A stretch of 33,170 bases of DNA, taken from the IMG/VR virus record IMGVR_UViG_2541047926_000010. One strand, given 5' to 3'. A program made the position numbers and the translations under genes. Source of the stretch: a virus (taxonomy: Duplodnaviria; Heunggongvirae; Uroviricota; Caudoviricetes). This document shows positions 2,723 through 32,941 of the stretch, one piece after another (the first letter of the stretch is position 1; each line of letters begins with the position of its first letter). Below the pieces are notes generated by a model, which worked only from the letters and a program-made list of their open reading frames with translations, searched no databases and was not told the DNA's origin.

Positions 2723-3786
2723 AGCAGCTCTACCTCAACGTTTCCTAATTTGAGCCATTCGACTTTCGTGGCATCGATTATCGGTTGAATATTTGCCGAT
2801 GGTGTAACGATGTCATAGTCGGTAATACCCGGAATTAGAGAAATCAATGTCCCCGCCTGGCTGCGAATAAAAGCCACTCCAGGCTCTCGGCGCGAGTCAT
2901 CGTCCTCCAGCGTTCCGGCGACAGCCTGTTTGGCTGCTGCGAGGGTGATGCCCTCCAGTGATACCTTCACGAGGACGTCAAATGTACGGATGACAGGTAT
3001 GAGCACCAGCGTGTTTTTTGCTGTAACAGGCCGGACATCGTCAATGTGAGCCTGCACCCTGTCGATCACATCCTGAGATGGCAGCCCACCTGCAGACGTG
3101 ATCACAACATCAACGGTACCCGGCCCCCGCCGCAAAGGGTAAACATATGCGGCGGATACGCCTGATACCTCAAGCGCCCAGCGTTTGTAATCATATTTAT
3201 TGCCGCCTGCAGGAGGTCGGCGGATGATTTCAAGCAGACGAGCAAGCAGCTCTGCATCCGTTTCCTCATCTGTTCCGCCAGTCATCAGGCCTACTGTCAC
3301 TGTGCTGTCAAACCCATCAGGTGTTGTGGTCAGTGTGGCCGATGTGACGGAAGTGGTGTTACCAGTGGTTCCGGCCAGAGAAGACACTGCGTTTACCGAT
3401 GATTTTCCATCTGACCCGACAATAATATCTTCGGTTGTTGTCCACGAAACACTGTCGCGTTTGAACACAAGACCGGCAGCGGCCACCGCTCCTGGTTCGC
3501 CGGTAAACGTGGCAGGCCCGGAGGCGCTGTTGGCTGCTTTTTTGCTTAAACCACGTAAACGGGCGTGCAGATAGAGGAATTCCGAATCAGCAGTATCCGG
3601 AAAGATCTGACGGACTATCCATCCCTGATGCTGATAAAGCCCCTCGGCAACACTGGCTACACTCGATGCCCGGATGTACCAGTCGCTGTCCGGGCCCAGC
3701 GTATCATCTGACAACTGCAGGAGATTTTTGATATCCCGCAGAATGTCAGTGCGTATTTGCGCGGCATTTTTGGTAATGAATGGCAT
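2719..3786 (-). CDS. Baseplate J-like protein (Mu gp47-like)
   Basis: 355 aa; baseplate J-family features and synteny; overlaps both neighbouring genes. Confidence 0.8.
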   Translation of the reverse strand: MPFITKNAAQIRTDILRDIKNLLQLSDDTLGPDSDWYIRASSVASVAEGLYQHQGWIVRQIFPDTADSEFLYLHARLRGLSKKAANSASGPATFTGEPGAVAAAGLVFKRDSVSWTTTEDIIVGSDGKSSVNAVSSLAGTTGNTTSVTSATLTTTPDGFDSTVTVGLMTGGTDEETDAELLARLLEIIRRPPAGGNKYDYKRWALEVSGVSAAYVYPLRRGPGTVDVVITSAGGLPSQDVIDRVQAHIDDVRPVTAKNTLVLIPVIRTFDVLVKVSLEGITLAAAKQAVAGTLEDDDSRREPGVAFIRSQAGTLISLIPGITDYDIVTPSANIQPIIDATKVEWLKLGNVEVELL

Positions 3787-4136
3787 CAGCTGACCTTAAC
3801 CGGATATTTCCAGGTCTGCGGCGTTCCGCTCGCAGACGTGACGGTGATATGAAGCAGCATCCAGCCTTTTTGCCAGTGCTCTGCAGTAACGGAAATGGAC
3901 TGGGCGCGACCGTCGTCAATAATCGGTTGCAGGGCCTGCCGCGAATACTGCACCGCGAGTTGTTGAACGCGAGACACATCCTTTTCGCGGCGGAGTGTAT
4001 GCAAAAGAGAGCCCAGAGTTGGATCAGCCCACCATGAGCCAAGGGGCGTCATCAGCCGTAAGTAGACGGCATTCGCTAAAGAGTCTGAGCTGTCGCCGGT
4101 ATAATCGCCGGTCGTTGGATCAATCAACATTTCCAT
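3786..4136 (-). CDS. Mu gp46-like small baseplate protein
   Basis: 116 aa; synteny between spike and baseplate J genes. Confidence 0.65.
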   Translation of the reverse strand: MEMLIDPTTGDYTGDSSDSLANAVYLRLMTPLGSWWADPTLGSLLHTLRREKDVSRVQQLAVQYSRQALQPIIDDGRAQSISVTAEHWQKGWMLLHITVTSASGTPQTWKYPVKVS

Positions 4137-6032: not shown

Positions 6033-7347
6033 TCAGAACGTCACCGGCTTTGATATTGTTAGGATTACGTAGTGTCGGATTGAGACGCAGCAACTCGGCG
6101 GCGCGCGTGTAGTCCTCATACCACAGGTGGGCCAGCAAATGCAGGTTTGTGTCGGACAATACCACTCGCGTAGTCAGTGGTGGTCTGCTGGTAATAACCG
6201 CTGAGCCCAGCTCCTGAACGGTCAGGGCGATATCCTTGAGACCTTCAACCACGGGTTGCCAGGTCACGCCACCAGGTGTTTCACCGGCACTCAGGTTTTG
6301 CGTATCAGCAGCAAAGGTGTCCCGCGTCTGGTCGATTGCCTCCTGAATGGCCGTCCTGGTGTCGTTGGTGATCTGCTCAATATCAACGGGAGACAGAATA
6401 TCGCTGATGCTGCTGTCACTGAGTATGTCGGAAGCATCAAGTGCCAGCTGGATTGCAACCTGAGTTTTTACCGCCGTTATCAGCTCGGTAATATCCGAGG
6501 TTGATGAGCCTGCCGGAACGGCAACAGCAACCGTTTTTTTCCCGGTCACTATCTGCTGAGGTAATGCGGCCACATCCTGCAGATTGTTACGGCCATTCTT
6601 CCAGTCGGCCATCACGATGCCTGCTGTGCCGGAAACGTCTGAGGACTGTGAATAGCTTCCTGGATTATTACTGACACTTGATTTGGACTGAAACGACGTC
6701 AGACTCAGCGCACTCTGCAGGTCATTCATGAACGATTTTGGGTAATTAACAAAATCCGAGGTGGTACTGACAAATCCCGTCAGTTCCCCCTTAAGCACGG
6801 TCACCATATTCAGCGTCGTGGTTGCCAGCGATTTCGCTTTTTTCATCCACTTTTTCGCTGTACGCAGAGGCGAGAGAATATTGTCGATGGCCGTCTGGGC
6901 TTTCTCCAGAGCGGATTGCGCCTGGTTGAAAACGATATCAGCTTTCGACAGCGGGAAATCGCTGCCAAAGAAAGGCAGATTAAGTCCCCCCTGGATAAAG
7001 ACCACTTCGACAACGCAGTAATCAACGTTCTCCGCTTCATGCGATGCCTGATACTCAATGCACTGCATGCCCGTCATGGAGCCGAAAACGGGATGAATTA
7101 ATTCTGCGCTACCGCGAGTATCCAGTGCGGCCAGAAACGCCTGCAGCCGCACATCATAATCATCACCCCAGAAAAGGACTGTCATCCGCAGGTTACGAGG
7201 CTTGCGGCCAAGATCATCAACATCACCACCGTCGACATAGGGATACTCATACGTCGCAATGTCGCGACTGGCGCTGTCACGGGTATTAACCACATCAAAG
7301 CGGACGCCCCTGAATGAGGCATCCTGTAATGAATCTTCCCAGCTCAC
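6016..7347 (-). CDS. DNA circulation protein N-like (Mu gp43-like)
   Basis: 443 aa; position directly downstream of tape measure; N-terminal region typical of the Mu N family. Confidence 0.75.
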   Translation of the reverse strand: MSWEDSLQDASFRGVRFDVVNTRDSASRDIATYEYPYVDGGDVDDLGRKPRNLRMTVLFWGDDYDVRLQAFLAALDTRGSAELIHPVFGSMTGMQCIEYQASHEAENVDYCVVEVVFIQGGLNLPFFGSDFPLSKADIVFNQAQSALEKAQTAIDNILSPLRTAKKWMKKAKSLATTTLNMVTVLKGELTGFVSTTSDFVNYPKSFMNDLQSALSLTSFQSKSSVSNNPGSYSQSSDVSGTAGIVMADWKNGRNNLQDVAALPQQIVTGKKTVAVAVPAGSSTSDITELITAVKTQVAIQLALDASDILSDSSISDILSPVDIEQITNDTRTAIQEAIDQTRDTFAADTQNLSAGETPGGVTWQPVVEGLKDIALTVQELGSAVITSRPPLTTRVVLSDTNLHLLAHLWYEDYTRAAELLRLNPTLRNPNNIKAGDVLNAYSR

Positions 7348-9497
7348 TGCGGGCCTCCTGTTGAGCCGCGAACGGATTGTTCGCCGTTGTATTCATTAAC
7401 AGCTGATGCAATTTCACGTCCGTCTAATACCAGCTTTGTGGTGAGGTTAATTGGTTGTGATTTTTGTTGCTGCTGGGGCAGCAGATAAGACGGTACGCCT
7501 GTGGTTGCTGGTGTGTTTTGACCCATAGTGGCCGGTGAACTCCACCATGATTTGATCTCATCCACGGCATCCAGCAATCCGGGGCGGGCTTTTACTGCAT
7601 CCAGCATGCGTGCTGACTCACTGGAATAATTGTCGACCTTGAGTCTCGCACGCGCATCAGCATCGCCTCGCTCAACATGAACGAGCGGCGCATCCTGCAT
7701 GCCCTGGTAGAGTGCCAGCGGAGCAGCAACGCGCCCCAGAACTTTACCTGCACCACCCCGGATAGCGGACCAGGTGCGCCCCAGAGCAGTACCGCCAGCA
7801 GACGGAACTCCCCCTGCAGGAGAACCAGGCATTTTTATTCCGCCCCCCGTCAGGAAATTGAGCCCGGCAAAAGCTACAGCCGCTGCTGTCATGGCTTTAA
7901 TGCCAGTGGTGGCACCTGAAATAGCAGTTGTTAATTCAGGATATTCTTTAGCGTAATCGGTAAGTTTTGACGTCAAATCACCGTATAAATCGGCAATAGG
8001 TTTCATTGCGTCCTGTTCAGAGAACATTTTCTCAGATTCAAATTGTTGTGACTTAAAATCATTTGTTGATGACATCACATCAAAAGATGCAGCTCCAGCC
8101 CCAGCCGAATTCTCAGTTCCTTTTATTTGATCCTTTATAAACTCACGCTTCATTATATTTGTTTTCAAAGCAGTACTAGCTTGCTGGTCAGCAATTATTT
8201 TTGACGTGATTGAAGAAACAACAATATCCAAAGCAGCGAGGATATCGTTTTCTTTATCCGTACCTTTATATTTCTTTGCCTCGCCTCTTAGTTTTTGAAC
8301 TCTTTTATCTGCTGATACAATCCCCGATACGGCATTCATAACGATGTCTGGTGTACTTAACCCATTTGTCTTTTGCTCAGCCAAATAATCAATGTAACCA
8401 AGTGCCTTTCCACCTTTCCCTCTGAATTTATACTTCTTCAAAGTATTTTGAATATCAGCACTTGTGATTTTATCAAGTAAATTATTTACGTTAGTAGATG
8501 CAGCACTGTTATCACCTGCTGTTTCTGCATTTGCCTGTAATAAGGCTAATATCTTATCAAAATCACCAAGACCAGACATACCGATACTCTTAGCTTTGGT
8601 GAGCGTTAATGATAAAGATGATGCCATATCGGCAAGTTCATACTTGCCATTTTCTCCTGAACGAATCGACTTATCATAAACAGTAGGTAAGTCTTTCGGA
8701 TCAATGTCAAAGTTTTTTATAGCGCTGATACCAATTTTAGCCAGGTCTTGTGGGTTAGCACCTGATGCTGAAGCATAACGAGTAATATCAGGCAATATTT
8801 TCATAGCCGTCTTTTCATCAAGATTACCTGCAAACAGAGCATTCAGCGTATCCTGTGCAGCTTCAGGCGTACCGCCACCGTAGCGCACCGCATTGCGGAT
8901 AGCGTTATTGATAACGGGGATTTTTTTAATACGCTCAGGACCTGACAGCTCGTTATATGCAGTGTTAGCTATTTCTGCATTACGCCGTTCGTAAGCCATC
9001 TGACGCTGAACCGGGTCTTTTATGATCATACCTGCAGCGGTTAATCCACCGGTTACTGCTGCCACGGTTGAACCAGCAGCACGAAAGCGCTGCATGCGCG
9101 TCATTGAGTCATTCACGCCACCAAGTTCAGTCCGCAGCGTTTTGACCCTGTCAGTCATGGCCCTGAAAGCCCGATTCTGCTCATTCGCGGACAGCATGCC
9201 TGTGCGGGTAAGGCGGTTGTAGGCCGCCATGGTCTGCTGTATTTCACGCTGAATATCGCGCTCAGAACGAATACCAAGGGTAGATCGCGCCGAGCTGGCG
9301 CGACGGTATTCCTCAATCAGAGAACGGGAGGCACGAATCGCTGTGGTTGAGTTCTGCTGGCGGGATTTCGCCAGCTCGTCATCGGTCTTTTGCGCCGCTT
9401 TGGTATCACGGCTGATGCCCTGCAGTGCCTGCTTAAGCACTTTAGAGCCGGTATCACGGGCAAGCAGCTGCAGCGCCAGTTGTAAGTTACGCGCCAT
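7344..9497 (-). CDS. Tail tape measure protein
   Basis: 717 aa; Ala/Gly-rich helical protein downstream of the tail chaperone; ATG 9497-9495. Confidence 0.85.
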   Translation of the reverse strand: MARNLQLALQLLARDTGSKVLKQALQGISRDTKAAQKTDDELAKSRQQNSTTAIRASRSLIEEYRRASSARSTLGIRSERDIQREIQQTMAAYNRLTRTGMLSANEQNRAFRAMTDRVKTLRTELGGVNDSMTRMQRFRAAGSTVAAVTGGLTAAGMIIKDPVQRQMAYERRNAEIANTAYNELSGPERIKKIPVINNAIRNAVRYGGGTPEAAQDTLNALFAGNLDEKTAMKILPDITRYASASGANPQDLAKIGISAIKNFDIDPKDLPTVYDKSIRSGENGKYELADMASSLSLTLTKAKSIGMSGLGDFDKILALLQANAETAGDNSAASTNVNNLLDKITSADIQNTLKKYKFRGKGGKALGYIDYLAEQKTNGLSTPDIVMNAVSGIVSADKRVQKLRGEAKKYKGTDKENDILAALDIVVSSITSKIIADQQASTALKTNIMKREFIKDQIKGTENSAGAGAASFDVMSSTNDFKSQQFESEKMFSEQDAMKPIADLYGDLTSKLTDYAKEYPELTTAISGATTGIKAMTAAAVAFAGLNFLTGGGIKMPGSPAGGVPSAGGTALGRTWSAIRGGAGKVLGRVAAPLALYQGMQDAPLVHVERGDADARARLKVDNYSSESARMLDAVKARPGLLDAVDEIKSWWSSPATMGQNTPATTGVPSYLLPQQQQKSQPINLTTKLVLDGREIASAVNEYNGEQSVRGSTGGPQ

Positions 9498-9500
9498 GGA

Positions 9501-10024
9501 TTATCTCCGTTTGCCGACTTTCTTCCGGCGTTGCGATTTGACAGTGCGGGTTGTTCGGGTGGTGGTTTGCCCGGTTTTCTTTCCATGTAACCGGGCAAGC
9601 GCTTCGGTGTAGCCGTCGAGTTCCGTTCGGGTCATGCTTCCGATTTGTTGTTCACTGATCCCGTATCGCCCGAGGGCAAGGACGAGGGTTCGGTACCCGG
9701 TGAGCTTTTGTTCAAATCCATCCGCTTTTTTTTAATGGCTTCAATCTGAGCATCGATGAGATCGAAATCATCATCATTCAGCTCGTTAAGTAACAGCTCT
9801 GCCGTGATTTCTTCCTTCTGCAGGTCTCCGAGGGAAGTAATTGCACACGCCATCACCGCAACGCGGTAATACATGTTTGCGGCTGCGCCTTCGGTAGTGC
9901 CGCAGGCTTCATCGGTTGCCCGCAGCGCTTCAATGGTATCGCTCACCACAGGCAGCCTGACGGCAAAGTCAAAATGGACTTTATCACCGCATTTAACGCC
10001 ATATAAAAGTTGCTGCTTTTCCAT
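9501..10024 (-). CDS. Tail assembly chaperone, predicted -1 frameshift fusion product
   Basis: Manual translation: after the slippery site the -1 frame is open for 74 codons to TAA 9503-9501, two codons before the tape-measure ATG and in its frame. Confidence 0.55.
9632..10024 (-). CDS. Tail assembly chaperone, zero-frame product
   Basis: 130 aa; sits between tail tube and tape measure; acidic stretch ELNDDDFDLIDAQ; contains the slippery site. Confidence 0.7.
   Translation of the reverse strand: MEKQQLLYGVKCGDKVHFDFAVRLPVVSDTIEALRATDEACGTTEGAAANMYYRVAVMACAITSLGDLQKEEITAELLLNELNDDDFDLIDAQIEAIKKKRMDLNKSSPGTEPSSLPSGDTGSVNNKSEA
9725..9731 (-). promoter_or_regulatory. Programmed -1 ribosomal frameshift slippery heptamer A_AAA_AAG
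   Basis: Minus-strand ATT AAA AAA AAG CGG; run of 8 A (plus-strand T run 9726-9733) in frame as X_XXY_YYZ. Confidence 0.6.
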
Positions 10025-10399
10025 TTATTCCTCCACCCGACGAAGCGCATTCATGGTGATATCGCGCTTCGCTTCGTTGTCGACGGTATACTGAGCCCCG
10101 ACCTGAGTGCTGAAACAGTCCAGGTAAGAAACACGTTTACCGCTGCTGTTAAGTGGATACTGGGTGATTTTCGCACCTTCAATACCGCCCCAGTTCAGGT
10201 CGCCGGATTCCGGGATAACTACCGTAACGGTCAGCTGGATCTCTTCAATGCCACGGGAAAAACCTTTGGCACGTCCCGTTTTGTTCATCGTCTTAACCAG
10301 CTTGCGTCCAGTGGTCACATCTTCCTTGAGGTCAGTCACTTCAATTTCCTGGCCGTCGACTTCCATGACGATCGCGCCAACATATTCTTCAAGAGCCAT
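10025..10399 (-). CDS. Tail tube protein (Mu gp40-like)
   Basis: 124 aa; directly downstream of the sheath gene. Confidence 0.75.
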   Translation of the reverse strand: MALEEYVGAIVMEVDGQEIEVTDLKEDVTTGRKLVKTMNKTGRAKGFSRGIEEIQLTVTVVIPESGDLNWGGIEGAKITQYPLNSSGKRVSYLDCFSTQVGAQYTVDNEAKRDITMNALRRVEE

Positions 10400-10412: not shown

Positions 10413-11831
10413 TCAGAGCAGCAAATCAATTCGACCGGCAAAGACGTGCAGGCCATTCACAACATCCGCAGGGATGCGACCGTTCAGCTGGTTAACATCC
10501 TGCAGATCGCGCTCTACAAGAAGACCGTCTTTGTTGGCATCCACCTCCTCGACAATCTCCAGCTCCTCCAGCTTGTAAAGCACATCAAGCAGTTCACTGC
10601 GTACCTTCGGAGGTGTTCTTGAGCTGAGCTTGTCGCGCGGGAATCGCAGAGCGATGCGTTCACGGCAGGCCTTGCGCACATAGTCCAGCGTTCGGATGGT
10701 GGTGATATCCAGCAGCGCCACATCATCCACGCCCTGGGCGTTTTTGGTGTAGGTGCTGATCGCGCGAACGATTTGCACTTTGTCACCGGGGCCAATCTCA
10801 AACGGCGTAAGACCATTCAGCAGGGCGTTCTCCTGCTCAGTTCGCCCAGGCTGACTCTCTACTGCAGTCACGTCCAGCGTGCTCATCGCAAGGGTGTTCA
10901 GCGGGCGTGCCGGGTCCTCTTCACTGGCGATAACAGCAGCATAGGCAGCGGCAATCTGCGCCGGTGTTTTTACCGAACCGCTATGCCAGCCCAGCGTGAT
11001 ACGTCCGTCATTAAGTGAGGCTGCCAGTGCAATGCCGGTGGAAAGCGACTTGCGCCACCCACCCACACCGATTGCGCCGCGCTGCTCCATCGCATTGCTG
11101 ACGTTTGTCAGATGGTTACGCAGTGCCGTCATCGCTTCCTGGGTGGAGAACGGGCAAACAATAATGTTATGACCTGCAGAGAACGCCGCTGCCAGCGCTG
11201 GCGTAATATCCGGATCAACATTACCGCCTGCAAGAGTGGTCGCCGCTGCTGTGATACCCGCTGCCGTCACGGCGGAAGAGACAATAATGTCGTTACCAAC
11301 CGCCCCTTTATGGCGGCAGGTCAGGGTCACTTCCCCCGCGTTTGCCGTCGCTGTCACTGGCAACCCGTCTTTCTGGGTAATCAGTTCCGTCAACGCTGCC
11401 GCAATGGTCTCTGCCGTATCTGCTGCCGAAATACCGACATCAATACGGGTGCCATTAATGGTCACGCTCAGCTTCCCGCTGGAAGATGCTGTGCCGGTCA
11501 GGGTGACTTTTCCCGTCGCGGCTGTTGCAGTGGCCGCATCGCTGACCCCGACGATCTGCAGTTGCAGATAGGGGTAGGCACCGATGGCCGCCGTGGCCAT
11601 CAGATGCGCCAGTGAGCCACGGCCAAAGTACGTCGCAGCCTCTTCATCAGAGAAAACAGACTGAATGACAAGCGGTGCAGACGAACCGGAGGCCAGCATT
11701 GGTGCAATCATCAGCACCTTCTGGGTGTTACCCGGCAGGGTACGAACGGCCAGGCGGGTGTTGAACTCAATATACTGACCTGGCTTGCGGTTCGTACCGA
11801 TAGTGTCAAAACTGATATTAGGACTGCTCAC
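10413..11831 (-). CDS. Contractile tail sheath protein (Mu gp39-like)
   Basis: 472 aa; size, synteny and sheath-like sequence character. Confidence 0.85.
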   Translation of the reverse strand: MSSPNISFDTIGTNRKPGQYIEFNTRLAVRTLPGNTQKVLMIAPMLASGSSAPLVIQSVFSDEEAATYFGRGSLAHLMATAAIGAYPYLQLQIVGVSDAATATAATGKVTLTGTASSSGKLSVTINGTRIDVGISAADTAETIAAALTELITQKDGLPVTATANAGEVTLTCRHKGAVGNDIIVSSAVTAAGITAAATTLAGGNVDPDITPALAAAFSAGHNIIVCPFSTQEAMTALRNHLTNVSNAMEQRGAIGVGGWRKSLSTGIALAASLNDGRITLGWHSGSVKTPAQIAAAYAAVIASEEDPARPLNTLAMSTLDVTAVESQPGRTEQENALLNGLTPFEIGPGDKVQIVRAISTYTKNAQGVDDVALLDITTIRTLDYVRKACRERIALRFPRDKLSSRTPPKVRSELLDVLYKLEELEIVEEVDANKDGLLVERDLQDVNQLNGRIPADVVNGLHVFAGRIDLLL

Positions 11832-13116: not shown

Positions 13117-13524
13117 TTACCCCTTGGCCTTTTTGTCCGTGTTTTCCGAACCGGCCTGCAGCGCATCCAGCTTCTGACTCAGTGCATCACGTACTGTCTC
13201 CAGCTCCGTGATGGTGCCGTTTGCACTGGCAAGCTGCTGCTTAAGCGCGTCGCCATCCTGGTTGAGCTGCAGAACCGTCGCCTCCAGCTCGCTGACGCGT
13301 GCCCTGAGGCCGTCACGCTCGGTGGTCAGGGCGGAAACAGCATCGCCGTCGCCAGCGTTTTCAGGCACATCCTGCAAACGAACCACAATCAGATTGGGAT
13401 CGTTTTCCAGAATCTGGAGTTCGCTGTCGCTGAAATGGTCATCCGGCCAGGTGACAGTATTCGCGCTGTGGGCGATGCCGAGACGGCGAAAGCCATCGCG
13501 GCGGGCAGTGATTTGAATCGGCAT
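13117..13524 (-). CDS. Hypothetical head-associated protein with coiled-coil C-terminus
   Basis: 135 aa; directly downstream of the major head gene; heptad-like SELEATVLQLNQDGDALKQQLA. Confidence 0.5.
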   Translation of the reverse strand: MPIQITARRDGFRRLGIAHSANTVTWPDDHFSDSELQILENDPNLIVVRLQDVPENAGDGDAVSALTTERDGLRARVSELEATVLQLNQDGDALKQQLASANGTITELETVRDALSQKLDALQAGSENTDKKAKG

Positions 13525-14432
13525 TATGCGTCCTCCCCGGTGGAGCCATACGCCATCTGCCAGAAGCCGTAGCCACCATTTGCACGGGCTTCAGCACCGA
13601 AGATGAACTTCTTGCGCATAAAGACGTTGTCAGCGTTGTAGTCGGTCTGCTCGACAAAGACCGGTTTTTTACGCTCCTGATAAATCAGGGGCTTCACGGG
13701 TTTTGACGTGTCCAGAAGGAACCAGGCGGTATCTGACGTCAGCTCTGGGACAACCAGAACTTCAGCCGTCCCCTTGTATGGGTTTGGCGTATTGTCAGGG
13801 AAGCGGTCAGCCGTCATCAGATAGTTGGCATCGTCTTCAAGAGCCGGAGGCACAACCAGGATGGTCGGGCGAATTTTCAGGGACGCGCCTTCATCATCCT
13901 TCAGGCTGCGCATGGCCGTTCGTGCAGCCCCGTAACTTGCTTTTGCGGCGGCAAGCGAGGTAACGGCAAGCTTTTTCGTGCCTTTGTTAGAGACCGACTT
14001 GCCCCCCGAAAGGTGGTCGGTATCAAAGAAGGGCTGACCGTCGTAGCAAAGATTGGTGAAACCTTTGCTCAGGAGAGCGAAGACGATATCGGCAGGCAGT
14101 TCTGCAGCGGACTGGCCCGCACCTTTCGCCTGCAGGGCATAGCCCATGATTTGATCGTCTTCGATATCGTTACGTTCAACTTCTACCGTCGCTTCCCAGT
14201 CTTTGTTGCGGATGGTGTAGTTGAACGCGGCGAGCGCTTTAACCACCTTGTCGCCAATCCACTCACGCATTTTCGGGAACCGGCTTAGCCAGCTGTAGTC
14301 GTTTTCTTTCCCGGTCGACGGCACCACCATGGCAATCTTCTGCCAGTCGGACGGAGCCTGATCAAAGGCGTTCTGGAAGGTCGCTTTCAGATTAATGAAA
14401 ATCTGACGTACATTTTTTACGTTAATTAACAC
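13524..14432 (-). CDS. Major head (capsid) protein, Mu T-like
   Basis: 302 aa; size and position after protease/scaffold; Mu T-like sequence character. Confidence 0.85.
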   Translation of the reverse strand: MLINVKNVRQIFINLKATFQNAFDQAPSDWQKIAMVVPSTGKENDYSWLSRFPKMREWIGDKVVKALAAFNYTIRNKDWEATVEVERNDIEDDQIMGYALQAKGAGQSAAELPADIVFALLSKGFTNLCYDGQPFFDTDHLSGGKSVSNKGTKKLAVTSLAAAKASYGAARTAMRSLKDDEGASLKIRPTILVVPPALEDDANYLMTADRFPDNTPNPYKGTAEVLVVPELTSDTAWFLLDTSKPVKPLIYQERKKPVFVEQTDYNADNVFMRKKFIFGAEARANGGYGFWQMAYGSTGEDA

Positions 14433-16890: not shown

Positions 16891-18173
16891 GATTTCAGCT
16901 CCAGCAGCTGCGCCGCGCGTTCAGATAACACATCGCCAGGGGTGACTGTGGCACCGGCGTTTACAAGCGACAGACGCCAGCCATCGTCAGACTGCACACC
17001 ACGCACGGCGCGGGTGCCGTTCTGCCCGGAGAGGAGCCACACCAGAGCGTCATCATCAAGCCAGACACCAGCTGGCTGACGGAGCAGAACGGGAAGCTCT
17101 GACCACATCGGGCCCGGAGCCAGCCGGACATCCTCTTCGTGAACGCTTAATGTGATCGCACCGTTAACACCACGCTCTTCGAGGCGATTCAGCAGCTCAG
17201 GCTGGATACCGCCAACGCGTCTCAGGTCGCCACGGGTCTTCTGCCGCACGCTGACGGTGTCGACCCAGCGACGCACATCATCGCTGACGGCATCCAGCAC
17301 TGCAGGTTCAGAGAGGGTTTCATGGATGGCCTGAGAGGCAATCCGGGGCGTGGTAGTTGCAGATTTATCCATGAGGCGCTGTCCGAGAGAAGAGAGCCAG
17401 CCCTGACCCGGATTGTGCCCGAATCCGGCATCAGGCGTGTAAAGCTCGCCGTTGAAGCGTAACGCCTTAACGTCACGGGTTTCTTTTGGTCCCCATGCCT
17501 GCTGTACCGTGACAATGTCCTGCTCCCACGATTTGACCTCAATCCCCATGCGGTCTGCATCCGCCTGACTTCGGGCACGAATGCGGCAGCGGCAGTGGTA
17601 TCCGTCAGGCGGGTACATAAACTGCCATACAGGATCGTCATAGCGGGCTGTGAAACCATTAAGTCTGGCGTGGAGTGGCCGGGTGTGCATGTCCATGACG
17701 GCCACGCGTTCCCATATGGGGCGAAACTCCGCGTTGGCCATCTGCTCCGCATAGCGACCGGCACCATAGGCCGCCTGCATATTGGTTTCAAAGATAGTGC
17801 GCAGACGGCGTGGCGTGAGTTGTTTACCCTCCAGAACGCCATCCTCATCGGCGACCAGCCTGGCACGGTCGGCAAGCCAGCCCTTACGGATCAACGTTGG
17901 GGTTATCTGCCGTTCAAAGTCCCGGAGCGTGCCGCCATCAGCAATATGCTCGCGAAGCGATTTATGAATATCCTCAAGCACATCCTGTTTAAGGACGCCC
18001 GCCACGGTGAAACTGGTGGCATGGGCGCGGGCCTCAATATCGTGCCAGTTAAAGCCGGTGGCATAGCCCTTCGATTCGAAGTAGGCAATCGCTTCTGCGG
18101 GCTTTAACCCGATGGCGTACCCCAGATCAACATCAGCTTTCGGCATTGAGTCGCCCCCAGACCTCGCTGACAA
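16887..18173 (-). CDS. Head morphogenesis / minor head protein, Mu F-like
   Basis: 428 aa; directly downstream of portal. Confidence 0.8.
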   Translation of the reverse strand: MSARSGGDSMPKADVDLGYAIGLKPAEAIAYFESKGYATGFNWHDIEARAHATSFTVAGVLKQDVLEDIHKSLREHIADGGTLRDFERQITPTLIRKGWLADRARLVADEDGVLEGKQLTPRRLRTIFETNMQAAYGAGRYAEQMANAEFRPIWERVAVMDMHTRPLHARLNGFTARYDDPVWQFMYPPDGYHCRCRIRARSQADADRMGIEVKSWEQDIVTVQQAWGPKETRDVKALRFNGELYTPDAGFGHNPGQGWLSSLGQRLMDKSATTTPRIASQAIHETLSEPAVLDAVSDDVRRWVDTVSVRQKTRGDLRRVGGIQPELLNRLEERGVNGAITLSVHEEDVRLAPGPMWSELPVLLRQPAGVWLDDDALVWLLSGQNGTRAVRGVQSDDGWRLSLVNAGATVTPGDVLSERAAQLLELKS

Positions 18174-19707
18174 ACAGCGCCTGCTTTATCAGCTGCTGCA
18201 GCTGCGTATCATCCAGCTGAGGGTAACTCGCAGCAATGATATCCAGAGCCTCATCAGGGCTTTGCCCCTTGCTCAGGGCCGAGACCAGCGGCGCAATCAG
18301 CTTATCCATGGCTTTCGCGATGCTCTCCCCTGGCGACGTGGCGCTGTCCAGCGCATCCTGTGCAGGGTCAACAACCTCGCCCGTAGTGCTCAGTGCCGCA
18401 AAATGGCGGAATACCGGCGATGTGCTCAGCCCCACCGGAGAGGGAGCAGCAGGCGGTGTCAGCACAGCTTCGTTCTCTTTTGGTACCGGAATCCCGACCT
18501 TTTTGTGTATCCATGACGTCGGGATAGTGTCCATCCCGGCGCGTACCAGCGCGGAAACACCATTGGCGAAGGTTTCAATGCTCTCCAGCTCACGGGTATC
18601 AAATACCAGACGCGGCTGACGGCGCGGGCTGACGTTATAACCATTAATGGCCAGTAACATACGAATGAAGCCACGATAAAACCCTTCCAGCTGGCGGGCA
18701 TCAGCGGTCAGCAGATCGTGGCGGACTTCGTTATGCACATTACCAAGGGCATTTGTTGAGGACTTGCCGTCCGCCTGTGACGTCAGCGTGCCGCCGAGAA
18801 TGACCTTTGATTCGGTACGTTCGCACCAGTTAATCATCGCCATGAAAGGATCGGACTGCCCCTCGGCGGCATCCTTAAATTCGATTTTGGTGTTATCAGG
18901 GATGATCCCCGAGGCGTTATGACCGATGCTGACCAGCGCCTCCATGAGTTTATCCTGCTCATCCTGACTGGCCCCGGACATATACGACCCGATGCGCGGT
19001 GGCAGCCCGTAGATTTCCAGGAACTCAGCGAGATCGCGCACGCTGTAGTTTTTAAACAGATAAGGCCAGACCAGCACGCGGTATAAGCCGGACTGCGCGA
19101 TATAGCCTGACTTGGCGTTGTGCGTATGCACCAGCCAGCCAAACGGCCAGAGTTCTTCTCCCCCCAGCGTGCCGGTGTTAAGACGCACCTCATCCCCGGC
19201 TTCCGGCGTGGTACAGAACCAGCGATGCGGACGCAGTTTGATTTTGACAGGCAGCCACAGATTGCCGTCAAGCTCCCACTTTTCAATCTCCTGAGCGGAA
19301 AAGCCATGCCCGATAGCTTCAGCCGCATTCAGGGTAATATCTTCCATCTCCTGAAGGTCAGCGAACCAGCTGGCCACCATCGCGGCGATCTGCTTTTCTT
19401 CCGCCGTCGCGTTCGGCGGTGGCTCGATGCTCCAGTCCAGAGTGAGCAGCGCATTCTTACGCTTGGCCATTTCAGAAAAGATATGCCCGTCCCGCTCAAC
19501 CATATCTTCGAAAAGGTCAGCCTGAGCCGCTAGGTCGCCGCGTTCAGCCGCTTCCAGCAGGCGAGGAAGCCGGGCAATAGTCATTCCCCGTGAGGGGTGA
19601 GTTGGCCAGTCACGCTGCAGCTCGAACGTGCGGGAGGTCTGGGGGGCTTTAAGCACCTCTTTATTAAGCGGGCGACCATACTGGTCAAGAATCTGAACCA
19701 TTATCAA
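18133..19707 (-). CDS. Portal protein (Mu gp29-like, DUF935-like)
   Basis: 524 aa; directly downstream of terminase large subunit. Confidence 0.85.
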   Translation of the reverse strand: MIMVQILDQYGRPLNKEVLKAPQTSRTFELQRDWPTHPSRGMTIARLPRLLEAAERGDLAAQADLFEDMVERDGHIFSEMAKRKNALLTLDWSIEPPPNATAEEKQIAAMVASWFADLQEMEDITLNAAEAIGHGFSAQEIEKWELDGNLWLPVKIKLRPHRWFCTTPEAGDEVRLNTGTLGGEELWPFGWLVHTHNAKSGYIAQSGLYRVLVWPYLFKNYSVRDLAEFLEIYGLPPRIGSYMSGASQDEQDKLMEALVSIGHNASGIIPDNTKIEFKDAAEGQSDPFMAMINWCERTESKVILGGTLTSQADGKSSTNALGNVHNEVRHDLLTADARQLEGFYRGFIRMLLAINGYNVSPRRQPRLVFDTRELESIETFANGVSALVRAGMDTIPTSWIHKKVGIPVPKENEAVLTPPAAPSPVGLSTSPVFRHFAALSTTGEVVDPAQDALDSATSPGESIAKAMDKLIAPLVSALSKGQSPDEALDIIAASYPQLDDTQLQQLIKQALFVSEVWGRLNAES

Positions 19708-29944: not shown

Positions 29945-30838
29945 TTAATGGATCAGCATTTCAGCTATCTGGTTGACGATATGACCGCTGACCGGAACAT
30001 CATTCATCGCGCTGGTGCGGACCGCACCGCGCAGCAGCTTGAACAATCGGCGGGCGTTACCTTTTGACGCATTGAACAGCGCTTTGCTCAGGTCTTCATT
30101 CAGGCCATCCGGGAGAACGCTGCTGGCGATGACGTCAATATCAGCACCCGGCAGGCTATGCCCGAGGTTGAGGGCGAAACCGACACGGCTATAGAGCTGT
30201 ACGAGCTCACCGCGTTTGCCCTTGAGGTTCAGAATCAGGCGAGGCATACCAACCAGGACGATGCCGATCCCCGTTTTGTCATGGATGCGGCGGATAGATT
30301 CCAGCGCACGCAGAGGGAGGTTCTCGGCTTCATCAATAATCAGCACGCGTCCGGAGTCGCGCAGCTTGTTGATGCAGGCCTCGCTGAGTTCGTGCATATT
30401 GCCGCGCGTACTGAGCCCCAGCAGGTTACAGAGCTCTTCCAGGACTACCCGTGCGGTGTAGCCAGGGTCTGCCTCAATCAGCAACGCATCCCGGTATTTG
30501 GAGACGTAGGCTTTGCAAATCATCGTCTTGCCCAGACCGGCTTCGCCGTAGAGCACGTTGATATCACCTTCGACGTGTGCCATGCGTATAACATCAACGG
30601 CTTTGCGCGTTGTTGGGGTATCAACAAATTTGACGCTGATACGTGCCGAACGTTCTTTTTCATGCTGACGATCGATAAAGCTACGAATATCGTTTTCCAG
30701 CGATACAATATCGCCGTCGTATTTATTATTCAGATACTGGCTGATTACGGCCGAGCTCTTACCAATGGCGCGGGCGACCTGTGTCTGGTTAAGACCTTTT
30801 GCTTTCATCAGTTCGACAAGTTCATTTTTAGCTGACAT
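29945..30838 (-). CDS. B: Transposition ATPase / target DNA activator, MuB-like
   Basis: 297 aa; N-terminal helix-turn-helix-like segment (LNQTQVARAIGKSSAVISQYLN), Walker A GEAGLGKT, Walker B-like LIIDEAE; directly downstream of the transposase. Confidence 0.9.
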   Translation of the reverse strand: MSAKNELVELMKAKGLNQTQVARAIGKSSAVISQYLNNKYDGDIVSLENDIRSFIDRQHEKERSARISVKFVDTPTTRKAVDVIRMAHVEGDINVLYGEAGLGKTMICKAYVSKYRDALLIEADPGYTARVVLEELCNLLGLSTRGNMHELSEACINKLRDSGRVLIIDEAENLPLRALESIRRIHDKTGIGIVLVGMPRLILNLKGKRGELVQLYSRVGFALNLGHSLPGADIDVIASSVLPDGLNEDLSKALFNASKGNARRLFKLLRGAVRTSAMNDVPVSGHIVNQIAEMLIH

Positions 30839-30883: not shown

Positions 30884-32941
30884 TCAGAAGGTCGCTTTTT
30901 TATTGCCCTGACTTTTCAGCCATTCTTCACGCTCTGATTCGAACAGGAACACATGTTCCCGAGCATCATTAATACGCTCTGCGTCCGATGGTATTAATGC
31001 GCCGAAATCAGGGTACATATCGCTTTCAGGAAGCAGGCCTCTTGCCTCTGCTTCAATCTCTTCCCGTTGTTCGTCGATGCGCTTCAGACGACGCTGGCGA
31101 CGTTTCTCAACGGCGATATCCATCATGCTGGTTGGCAGCGCGGCACGCTTATTGCCGTTCCAGATGGCGGTGCAGACATAAGTACCGTCCATGCGACGAA
31201 CGATGACGGCAGCAGGGTCGTGAATGTCATAGGCGACCCGGACTTCCTCACCGTCGACCTGTATCAGGTCAGCGCTGAAATACTGGTTATTCATCAGGTC
31301 AATCCAGCCCCGCTGGGCGGTGCGGCACATTTCCGGCATGAAGGCTTCACGAAGCTCGATATCCGTCAGATATTCAATATCGTCACCCTCAGTGGCCAGA
31401 ACCTCGCGGCGGTACTGTGCTGGCGTCATATGCACACCATTACGTTTTGGTAGCTCGCTGTGCTCATGCAGGTTGTTGTATTTGTCGACTTCCTCAGCAA
31501 TGGTATCCAGCAGCATCTGCCACGACGGCAATTTACGCAGCGCGTTACGCTGTACGCTCGTGAGTTCGCGCCCATTCTCCTGAGCCTTAATCGCTGACTG
31601 GATAGCGCGACCGGTCATCCGCACATGCTCACGGTCGGCCCCGAATCCATTGTAAGTATCAAATTTATTGGCAATCGCTCTCGGTATTACGGCGTTCAGT
31701 CGTTCGATAATCCCGCGTGACTGCGGTCGACCCGGAATACTGGTCGGGTGATCAATACCCATGCGAGTGAAAATACCGGTGATATCAGCATCCAGCGTTT
31801 TATTGGTTTCACCGCCACCGTTATCCGAATAGACAAAAAGAGGTTTTCCGTGGAATTTCATGGCGTAGCGATAGGCATCCGCTACGGCGATGACGTTCTC
31901 TGAGAGCGCCAGGCTCCAGCCCACCAGGTAGCGGGTGCGGCCATCGATAACCAGCGTCAGTTCAGGTGTGAATGGACGACCATGGACCGGATGAGCAACT
32001 TTCATATCCAGCGATTTACCATCCGCAATCCAGCAACCATTTACTGGCATTTGTGACCAGTCACGCTTCTGATAAACCTCATAAGCCAGAGCCGCTGAAC
32101 CGCTGATACGGCCGCGAGCGCGTTCACGTTTTGGTAGCTTTTCCATCGCCCGACGCACGGCATCATAAGACGGACAGACGGCGAGCATCGCTGGCTGTCC
32201 CGCATAAATAGCCTGCCATTCAGTCTTGAATGAGCGCCACGCATCCACCAGAGAAGGGCCTGAGAGTTTCCGCCAGTGGGCGAGAAAATCAGGGAGCCAC
32301 TTAATCTGCTCAGGCTTACGCGCTTTAAGATGGCCTGGTGCCAGCAAAGCCAGGCGTTCGATACCTGGACGTGTAGAAAGGTAAACAGACAGCCATTCCT
32401 GAAGTGTTCTTTCGCCCACGCCACGACGGCTGGAACCTTTACGCGCATTGGCAATATCAGCCGCAGCCTGGATGTTTTCCGGCAACGTGCCCTTGCGTGA
32501 CTCTTTGGCGATGAACTCAACCGCCGATGCGCGTGACATACCGATATCCCGAAGACGCTCAACCTCTGCGGCTAATAATGCGCGGGCGTCGGCGATCTGT
32601 TTCTGGCGTTCGGTAAGGTCAGAGACCTCACGCTCCAGCAATACCGGGCACTGCCGCAATAACGTCAGTTCGTCGCGGGTCGTGGTGACTTCCCGCTTTG
32701 GTGCAGTCGGCGCTGATGAACAATCAGACTGTTTCAGCACCTCGCGATAATGCCGGGCTTTGACTATTTCACGCGCCTGTTCAGGCAGGCAGTCGATGTG
32801 GTACTCGAATGCTTTGCTGCCAGCACGTTTGCGAACCAGTTCAGGGGAGTTGCCTGCACTTTTTTTAAGGCTGTATCGCAGTCCTTGTTGTGTTGTTGGC
32901 AGTCCAGGGACGCCAACTAATTCGTTAACAGTCACGAACAT
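30884..32941 (-). CDS. A: DDE transposase, MuA-like
   Basis: 685 aa; size, position between ner and B, Mu transposase-like domain organisation. Confidence 0.9.
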   Translation of the reverse strand: MFVTVNELVGVPGLPTTQQGLRYSLKKSAGNSPELVRKRAGSKAFEYHIDCLPEQAREIVKARHYREVLKQSDCSSAPTAPKREVTTTRDELTLLRQCPVLLEREVSDLTERQKQIADARALLAAEVERLRDIGMSRASAVEFIAKESRKGTLPENIQAAADIANARKGSSRRGVGERTLQEWLSVYLSTRPGIERLALLAPGHLKARKPEQIKWLPDFLAHWRKLSGPSLVDAWRSFKTEWQAIYAGQPAMLAVCPSYDAVRRAMEKLPKRERARGRISGSAALAYEVYQKRDWSQMPVNGCWIADGKSLDMKVAHPVHGRPFTPELTLVIDGRTRYLVGWSLALSENVIAVADAYRYAMKFHGKPLFVYSDNGGGETNKTLDADITGIFTRMGIDHPTSIPGRPQSRGIIERLNAVIPRAIANKFDTYNGFGADREHVRMTGRAIQSAIKAQENGRELTSVQRNALRKLPSWQMLLDTIAEEVDKYNNLHEHSELPKRNGVHMTPAQYRREVLATEGDDIEYLTDIELREAFMPEMCRTAQRGWIDLMNNQYFSADLIQVDGEEVRVAYDIHDPAAVIVRRMDGTYVCTAIWNGNKRAALPTSMMDIAVEKRRQRRLKRIDEQREEIEAEARGLLPESDMYPDFGALIPSDAERINDAREHVFLFESEREEWLKSQGNKKATF

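Follow-up and report, generated by a model that had tools for sequence, protein, structure and literature searches.

How the DNA between the tail assembly chaperone gene and the tail tape measure gene of this phage is translated, if it is translated at all, is the question that the locus raises. The window, i.e., the whole stretch of DNA that was analysed, is 33,170 nucleotides long (IMG/VR record IMGVR_UViG_2541047926_000010) and, to judge by its gene content, it is a nearly whole Mu-like transposable, contractile-tailed prophage. It encodes, quoted here by position without strand, a transposase with Mu transposase domains (30884-32941), an adjoining AAA+ protein of the TniB/transposition-helper type (29945-30838), a portal protein (18133-19707, Portal_Mu) and a Mu-like gpT capsid protein (13524-14432), as well as Gp37, a DNA circularisation protein and a GpP-like baseplate protein. 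The tail genes follow one another along the minus strand in the order sheath, tube, chaperone and tape measure. The sheath gene (10413-11831) encodes 472 aa with the Pfam domain Phage_sheath_1, and the tail tube protein gene (10025..10399) encodes 124 aa that belong to PHROG 185 (E 4.4e-33). The TAA of the tube gene abuts the ATG of the chaperone, whose 0-frame ORF (9632..10024, minus strand) runs from the ATG at 10024 to the TGA at 9634-9632 and encodes 130 aa that match PHROG 508 (E 5.9e-38). The tape measure gene (7344..9497, minus strand) encodes 717 aa with a Pfam PhageMin_Tail domain (E 2.6e-14), and its counterpart in a RefSeq relative is annotated as tape measure protein. The other genes of this tightly packed operon abut or overlap, and the apparent gap of 134 nt that the ORF lists leave between chaperone and tape measure (9498-9631, minus strand) is the sole sizeable one.

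The original prediction was that a -1 frameshift site of the lambda G/GT type lies within the chaperone ORF and opens the shifted frame up to the tape measure start. Reading and translating the minus strand confirmed the particulars of that site. Codons 97-100 of the chaperone are ATT AAA AAA AAG (9736-9725), which contain an A8 run at 9733-9726 and the slippery heptamer A_AAA_AAG (9725..9731, minus strand) as the proposed -1 shift site. The heptamer is in the X_XXY_YYZ phase because the distance from 10024 to 9733 is 291, i.e., 97 x 3, and at codons 98-100 of 130 it occupies the last quarter of the chaperone ORF. A -1-frame stop, TAA at 9734-9732, stands immediately 5' of the heptamer and shuts that frame, and therefore shifts farther upstream cannot reach the extension. 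AAAAAAG is found nine times in the window, where 5.2 +/- 2.1 copies are expected, and the occurrence of the heptamer by itself is not remarkable. Its phase sets it apart, as only one of the eight minus-strand copies that lie within long ORFs of the window is in slippery phase, and that copy is this site. A scan that began at the DDDFD motif and ended at the 0-frame stop, thereby taking in the entire stretch in which both frames are open (9731 to 9635), found no other X_XXY_YYZ heptamer.

From the GCG at 9725 the -1 frame is open across 74 sense codons, ADGFEQKLTGYRTLVLALGRYGISEQQIGSMTRTELDGYTEALARLHGKKTGQTTTRTTRTVKSQRRKKVGKRR, to the TAA at 9503-9501 (extension with stop, 9501..9725, minus strand), and retranslation revealed no earlier stop, in agreement with what had first been read by hand. 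A single TCC (9500-9498) separates this TAA from the tape measure ATG (9497-9495), and the two are in the same frame, again as predicted. The -1 ORF fills the 134-nt gap exactly, and the GGAG Shine-Dalgarno sequence of the tape measure gene sits within its end. The fusion would be complement(join(9501..9725,9725..10024)), in which base 9725 is read twice; with 100 residues before the shift and 74 after it, the fusion has 174 aa alongside the 130-aa product, and both sizes proposed at the outset were reproduced by translation.

The two products share a conserved domain, chaperone residues 1-100, and residues 101-130 of the 0-frame product are a variable Ser/Pro-rich tail. A fold search showed that the N-terminal domain has the tail-assembly-chaperone fold and matches the HK97 chaperone. 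A PDB sequence search with the chaperone profile gave a chance-level match only (E 0.27), and the chaperone scored 23.9 bits against Pfam PF23746 Gp41_Mu, below the gathering threshold of 27. By analogy, the 130-aa product is the counterpart of lambda gpG, P2 gpE and Mu gp41, and the extension is that of the lambda T segment. The extension has a very basic tail, and its model, of low to moderate confidence (pLDDT 36-73), shows a helical stretch at modest confidence; a tube-binding role is therefore assigned to it by analogy only.

Relatives were gathered by protein-guided locus searches, because nucleotide searches gave few or weak, partial matches: in the GenBank phage collection no match went beyond 68% identity over 37% of the query, and a close relative was thus absent there, and a close nucleotide relative, with 93% identity, was present in one of 5,426 complete E. 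coli genomes. With proteins as guides, 13 loci in genomes and 66 on viral contigs were retrieved, to which one E. coli prophage was added, and the comparison set comprised 76 loci including the window, with chaperone identities of 39-99%. Loci or protein homologues were found in Citrobacter, Kosakonia, Trabulsiella, Pectobacterium, Serratia, Erwinia, Lonsdalea, Morganella, Klebsiella, Salmonella, Enterobacter, Yersinia and others. Codon position and phase of the A8G run are identical throughout the 76 loci, and AAAAAAAAGC is invariant in the 51 unique nucleotide versions. The lysine triplet is invariant at the protein level, and its three codons show no synonymous change in the 51 unique sequences, while the third codon positions just upstream of the heptamer have a mean entropy of 1.29 bits. 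The invariance of the G of AAG and of the next C is no clean test of slippage, because the -1-frame Ala codon also constrains them.

The conservation of the extension in related phages, on which the original prediction had been staked, was found throughout this set. The extension is 68-85 codons long in 76 of 76 loci, and wherever the tape measure ATG was located, the distance between it and the end of the extension is -1, 0 or +3 nt; the exception is one locus (L002), where 118 nt lie between that end and the GTG that opens the first long ORF found. The protein alignment of the extension is conserved over its full length, including the first 30 residues (A-x-G-[YF]-R-x-L-A-L-G-x-x-G...), which lie ahead of the first possible start. 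Among the codons that differ between relatives, the synonymous fraction falls from 0.46 to 0.09 in the 0 frame, and rises from 0.03 to 0.35 in the -1 frame, when the 22 codons before the heptamer are compared with the 22 codons after it. The signal thus moves to the -1 frame though in most loci the 0-frame ORF has not yet ended in the downstream region; its tail after the heptamer is 10-30 codons of Ser/Pro-rich, low-complexity sequence. The periodicity of the entropy shows the same switch from the 0 frame to the -1 frame at the heptamer. These codon comparisons show that purifying selection in the -1 frame begins at the heptamer, and we regard the comparative evidence for the shift site as decisive.

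A few relatives depart from the A8 run. A protein of 174 aa with 90% identity (P0001) is encoded as a single-ORF fusion on three contigs, an A9 run in L022 (about 3187) fuses chaperone and extension in one ORF, and an A6 run in a Symbiopectobacterium locus (L010) likewise joins them into one ORF. In a fourth case (L009, about 3287), an A7 run truncates the chaperone at once. Such variants in run length are rare, two of them belong to Symbiopectobacterium symbionts whose genomes are degenerating, and all four could be real mutations or homopolymer sequencing errors. The three single-ORF variants indicate that the fusion is viable as a protein.

The locus is thus very probably the tail assembly chaperone pair of a Mu-like prophage, expressed by programmed -1 ribosomal frameshifting; we infer the occurrence of slippage, its efficiency, its ribosomal nature and the binding partners of the products. 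Most ribosomes would stay in the 0 frame and produce the 130-aa chaperone, and a minority, probably a few percent, would slip one base back at the heptamer, where the two tRNA-Lys on AAA-AAG of A_AAA_AAG (9731-9725) would re-pair with AAA-AAA. The shifted ribosomes would continue with GCG GAT GGA... for 74 codons and end at the TAA at 9503-9501, which yields the 174-aa fusion, and the site apparently would use no auxiliary stimulator, as at lambda G/GT. By analogy with the known systems, the shared N-terminal 100 residues, with their HK97-gp10-like fold, would coat the tape measure protein, and the extension would recruit the tail tube protein so that tube polymerisation starts. Neither product would be expected in the virion, and the fusion is probably essential for tail assembly, again by analogy.

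A frameshift in the tail chaperone, between the major tail gene and the tape measure gene, is described as conserved by Xu, Hendrix and Duda (2004), as cited in PMC3458567, PMC5009743 and PMC2628397. In lambda, G and GT are made at a ratio of about 30:1, gpG coats gpH and the T part recruits the tail tube protein (PMC5009743). We took lambda G/GT, HK97 gp10/gp11 and P2 E/E+E' as the known examples of the class, of which the locus is a real but ordinary member. It resembles lambda G/GT in its two overlapping ORFs between the tube or major tail gene and the tape measure gene, in the position of the heptamer in the last quarter of the first ORF, in the -1 shift to a minor, longer fusion (here predicted) that ends at the tape measure start, and in having no evident stimulatory structure. 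The lambda G/GT reading of the original prediction is accordingly supported by gene order, site, conservation and fold. The two systems differ in the heptamer, which is G_GGA_AAG in lambda G/GT and A_AAA_AAG here. They also differ in the tail, as it is contractile here and the partner of the fusion would be the tube protein under the sheath, as in P2 and Mu.

The same 174-aa fusion could also be obtained by transcriptional slippage, in which RNA polymerase adds an A on the A8 run and unshifted ribosomes read an A9 mRNA (...IKKKADGF...); the protein encoded would be identical to the frameshift product. Programmed transcriptional realignment is reported for An runs with n > 7 (PMC3711429), and A8 is at that threshold, but 76 of 76 loci have precisely eight A and then G, and the run never reaches the A9-A11 favoured by polymerase slippage. 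The sole longer run found, the A9 of L022, just fuses the frames in the DNA. Polymerase slippage would fit a site at which ribosomal stimulators were not found; however, A8G always keeps the X_XXY_YYZ phase, which places AAG in the A site, and A_AAA_AAG, the most shift-prone heptamer in E. coli, has that standing for enterobacterial ribosomes on its own (PMC5009743). A strict A8 plus G in slippery phase that is never lengthened in the split loci therefore favours the ribosome, and we consider it unlikely that the polymerase explains the fusion. The two forms of slippage are compatible, and a share of RNA polymerase on A8 is a possible contributor to a shift that we otherwise attribute to the ribosome.

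The stimulators themselves were sought on both sides of the site. Upstream, no SD-like GGAG, GAGG, AGGA, AGGG or GGGA was present within 30 nt of the heptamer in 33 unique sequences, and the energy of the duplex with the anti-SD sequence was about 0 for the window and most relatives, a few of which reach -6.4 kcal/mol. Downstream, a stimulatory structure had been proposed as a thing to look for, and none emerged among ordinary stem-loop folds: single-sequence folds gave MFE values of -17.2 kcal/mol for 60 nt and -26.3 kcal/mol for 100 nt, with z about -0.4 against shuffles, and the RNAalifold consensus on 24 relatives was -0.8 kcal/mol with 5 pairs and no compensatory change. The efficiency of the shift would thus depend on the heptamer alone, since neither stimulator was found. 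The original prediction had called the site dnaX-type. The dnaX gene uses A_AAA_AAG with tandem slippage of tRNA-Lys (PMC5009743, PMC3711429), and an upstream SD-like stimulator and a downstream hairpin bring its efficiency to about 50% (PMC3711429). The label is right for the heptamer, which is identical, as is the proposed tandem slippage of tRNA-Lys, and it fails for the SD-like element and the hairpin, neither of which was found here, and for the outcome of the shift: the dnaX shift leads almost directly to a stop and to a shorter product, whereas here 74 residues are added and the product is longer. As the dnaX stimulators were not found, the site would work like lambda G/GT and share only the heptamer with dnaX.

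One further element of the overlap was conserved at the nucleotide level. The block GTCCTYGCCCTCGG (9670..9683, minus strand), 42-55 nt 3' of the heptamer, is nearly invariant in the alignment of 24 diverse relatives, even at synonymous positions of the -1 frame; its -1-frame reading is VLALG and its 0-frame reading SSPS. No consistent pairing partner for the block was found within -150..+260 nt, and its best duplex partners were scattered from -150 to +200 nt. The block may reflect a dual-coding constraint (VLALG/SSPS) or an unrecognised element. Together with the invariant ATGA described below and the kept SSPS, it might point to a new type of distal, unstructured stimulator, or to three products in all, with a free 44-aa peptide from internal initiation beside the 130-aa chaperone and the 174-aa fusion, and we hold either of these to be distinctly unlikely.

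That free peptide is also the basis of a reading without recoding, in which an independent gene of 44 aa extends from the ATG at 9635 to the TAA at 9501 and is translated by termination-reinitiation at ATGA. The in-frame ATG (9633..9635, minus strand) is Met31 of the extension, it overlaps the 0-frame TGA as ATGA, and in the ORF list it starts the 44-aa ORF 9501..9635, which gene callers sometimes annotate separately, as in Klebsiella phage ST405-OXA48phi1.1, where a separate small CDS is recorded here. PHROG 11893, which is built on such calls, is confined to these 44 residues of the extension. The Met is conserved, and ATGA is invariant in 24 diverse relatives, including those with the 0-frame stop elsewhere; but the 0-frame stop falls on the Met31 ATG in only 28 of 76 loci, so that the geometry needed for coupling is not conserved, and the alignment of the 24 relatives showed no conserved SD ahead of the ATG at 9635. 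Moreover, the 30 -1-frame codons before this ATG are conserved as protein, with the synonymous-site signature of coding sequence, and they begin right at the heptamer after the -1-frame stop and contain no start codon in the ORF list. With these 30 codons (GYRxxxLALGxxG) conserved before any start, independent initiation cannot explain the extension; on the comparative evidence, translation of its first 30 residues requires a change of frame at the A run, whether in the ribosome or in the mRNA. An independent gene in place of the fusion is therefore very improbable, and internal initiation at the ATG at 9635, releasing a free 44-aa peptide besides the fusion, is possible. That the A8G run is kept merely for Lys-Lys-Lys, and that the -1 frame is open by chance or as the remnant of an indel or a sequencing error, has in its favour the protein-level invariance of KKK, an AAAAAAG that is not rare and the existence of the A7, A6 and A9 variants (L009, L010 and L022), but it is contradicted by the comparative tests, namely the lack of synonymous change in the Lys codons beside neighbours that vary freely, a -1 frame that is open for 68-85 codons in every locus and ends by the tape measure start wherever this was located, the purifying selection in that frame and the split A8 state that is the rule in independent genomes of many genera with length variants rare, and we give it practically no credence.

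Programmed -1 frameshifting at A_AAA_AAG, the reading we prefer, places the locus beside that of phage Mu, with which the window shares transposase, portal, capsid, sheath, tube, chaperone, tape measure and DNA circularisation protein in the same order. The Mu gp41 chaperone is extended by a -2 shift on GG_GGG_CGA (PMC3458567), unlike the family of the window, which would shift by -1 on A_AAA_AAG. We found the Mu GG_GGG_CGA at 3959-3966 of the Mu locus (L082, NC_000929), near the end of Mup41, and both this site and a -2 extension are absent at the locus of the window. The relevant clade of Mu-like phages may have exchanged the -2 site of Mu for a -1 site with the architecture kept. Homology between the extension of the window and the -2 extension of Mu (about 50 aa) was considered and set aside, as BLASTP gave no alignment. 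The Mu record NC_000929 annotates the 0-frame product alone, with a gap of 144 nt before the tape measure gene.

The main value of these results is a correction of annotation. The chaperone is a hypothetical protein in both annotated relatives that were inspected, the RefSeq E. coli prophage and the GenBank Klebsiella phage; the region downstream of it is left empty or holds a separate small hypothetical CDS, the extension being unannotated in the E. coli prophage, and the 174-aa fusion is therefore missing from those two records. The shift itself is a device well known in tailed phages, and what is new is an unannotated family in Mu-like phages that has the -1 site A_AAA_AAG; the understanding of frameshifting or of tail assembly is unchanged by it. 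As a natural case of an A_AAA_AAG site that apparently works without stimulators, the family is a clean one, and it indicates that Mu-like phages reach one end by differing types of shift, with -2 in Mu against -1 in the family of the window.

The relative found at the greatest distance (L080, positions 3001-3600, 26% identity) lacks the A8G run. A resemblance by eye between the extension of the window and the ORF that fills the gap before the tape measure gene of L080 was not supported by BLASTP (E 1.5). Because this ORF is in the +1 frame, its translation would require a shift of +1, or of -2 as in Mu, and a different type of shift is therefore implied.
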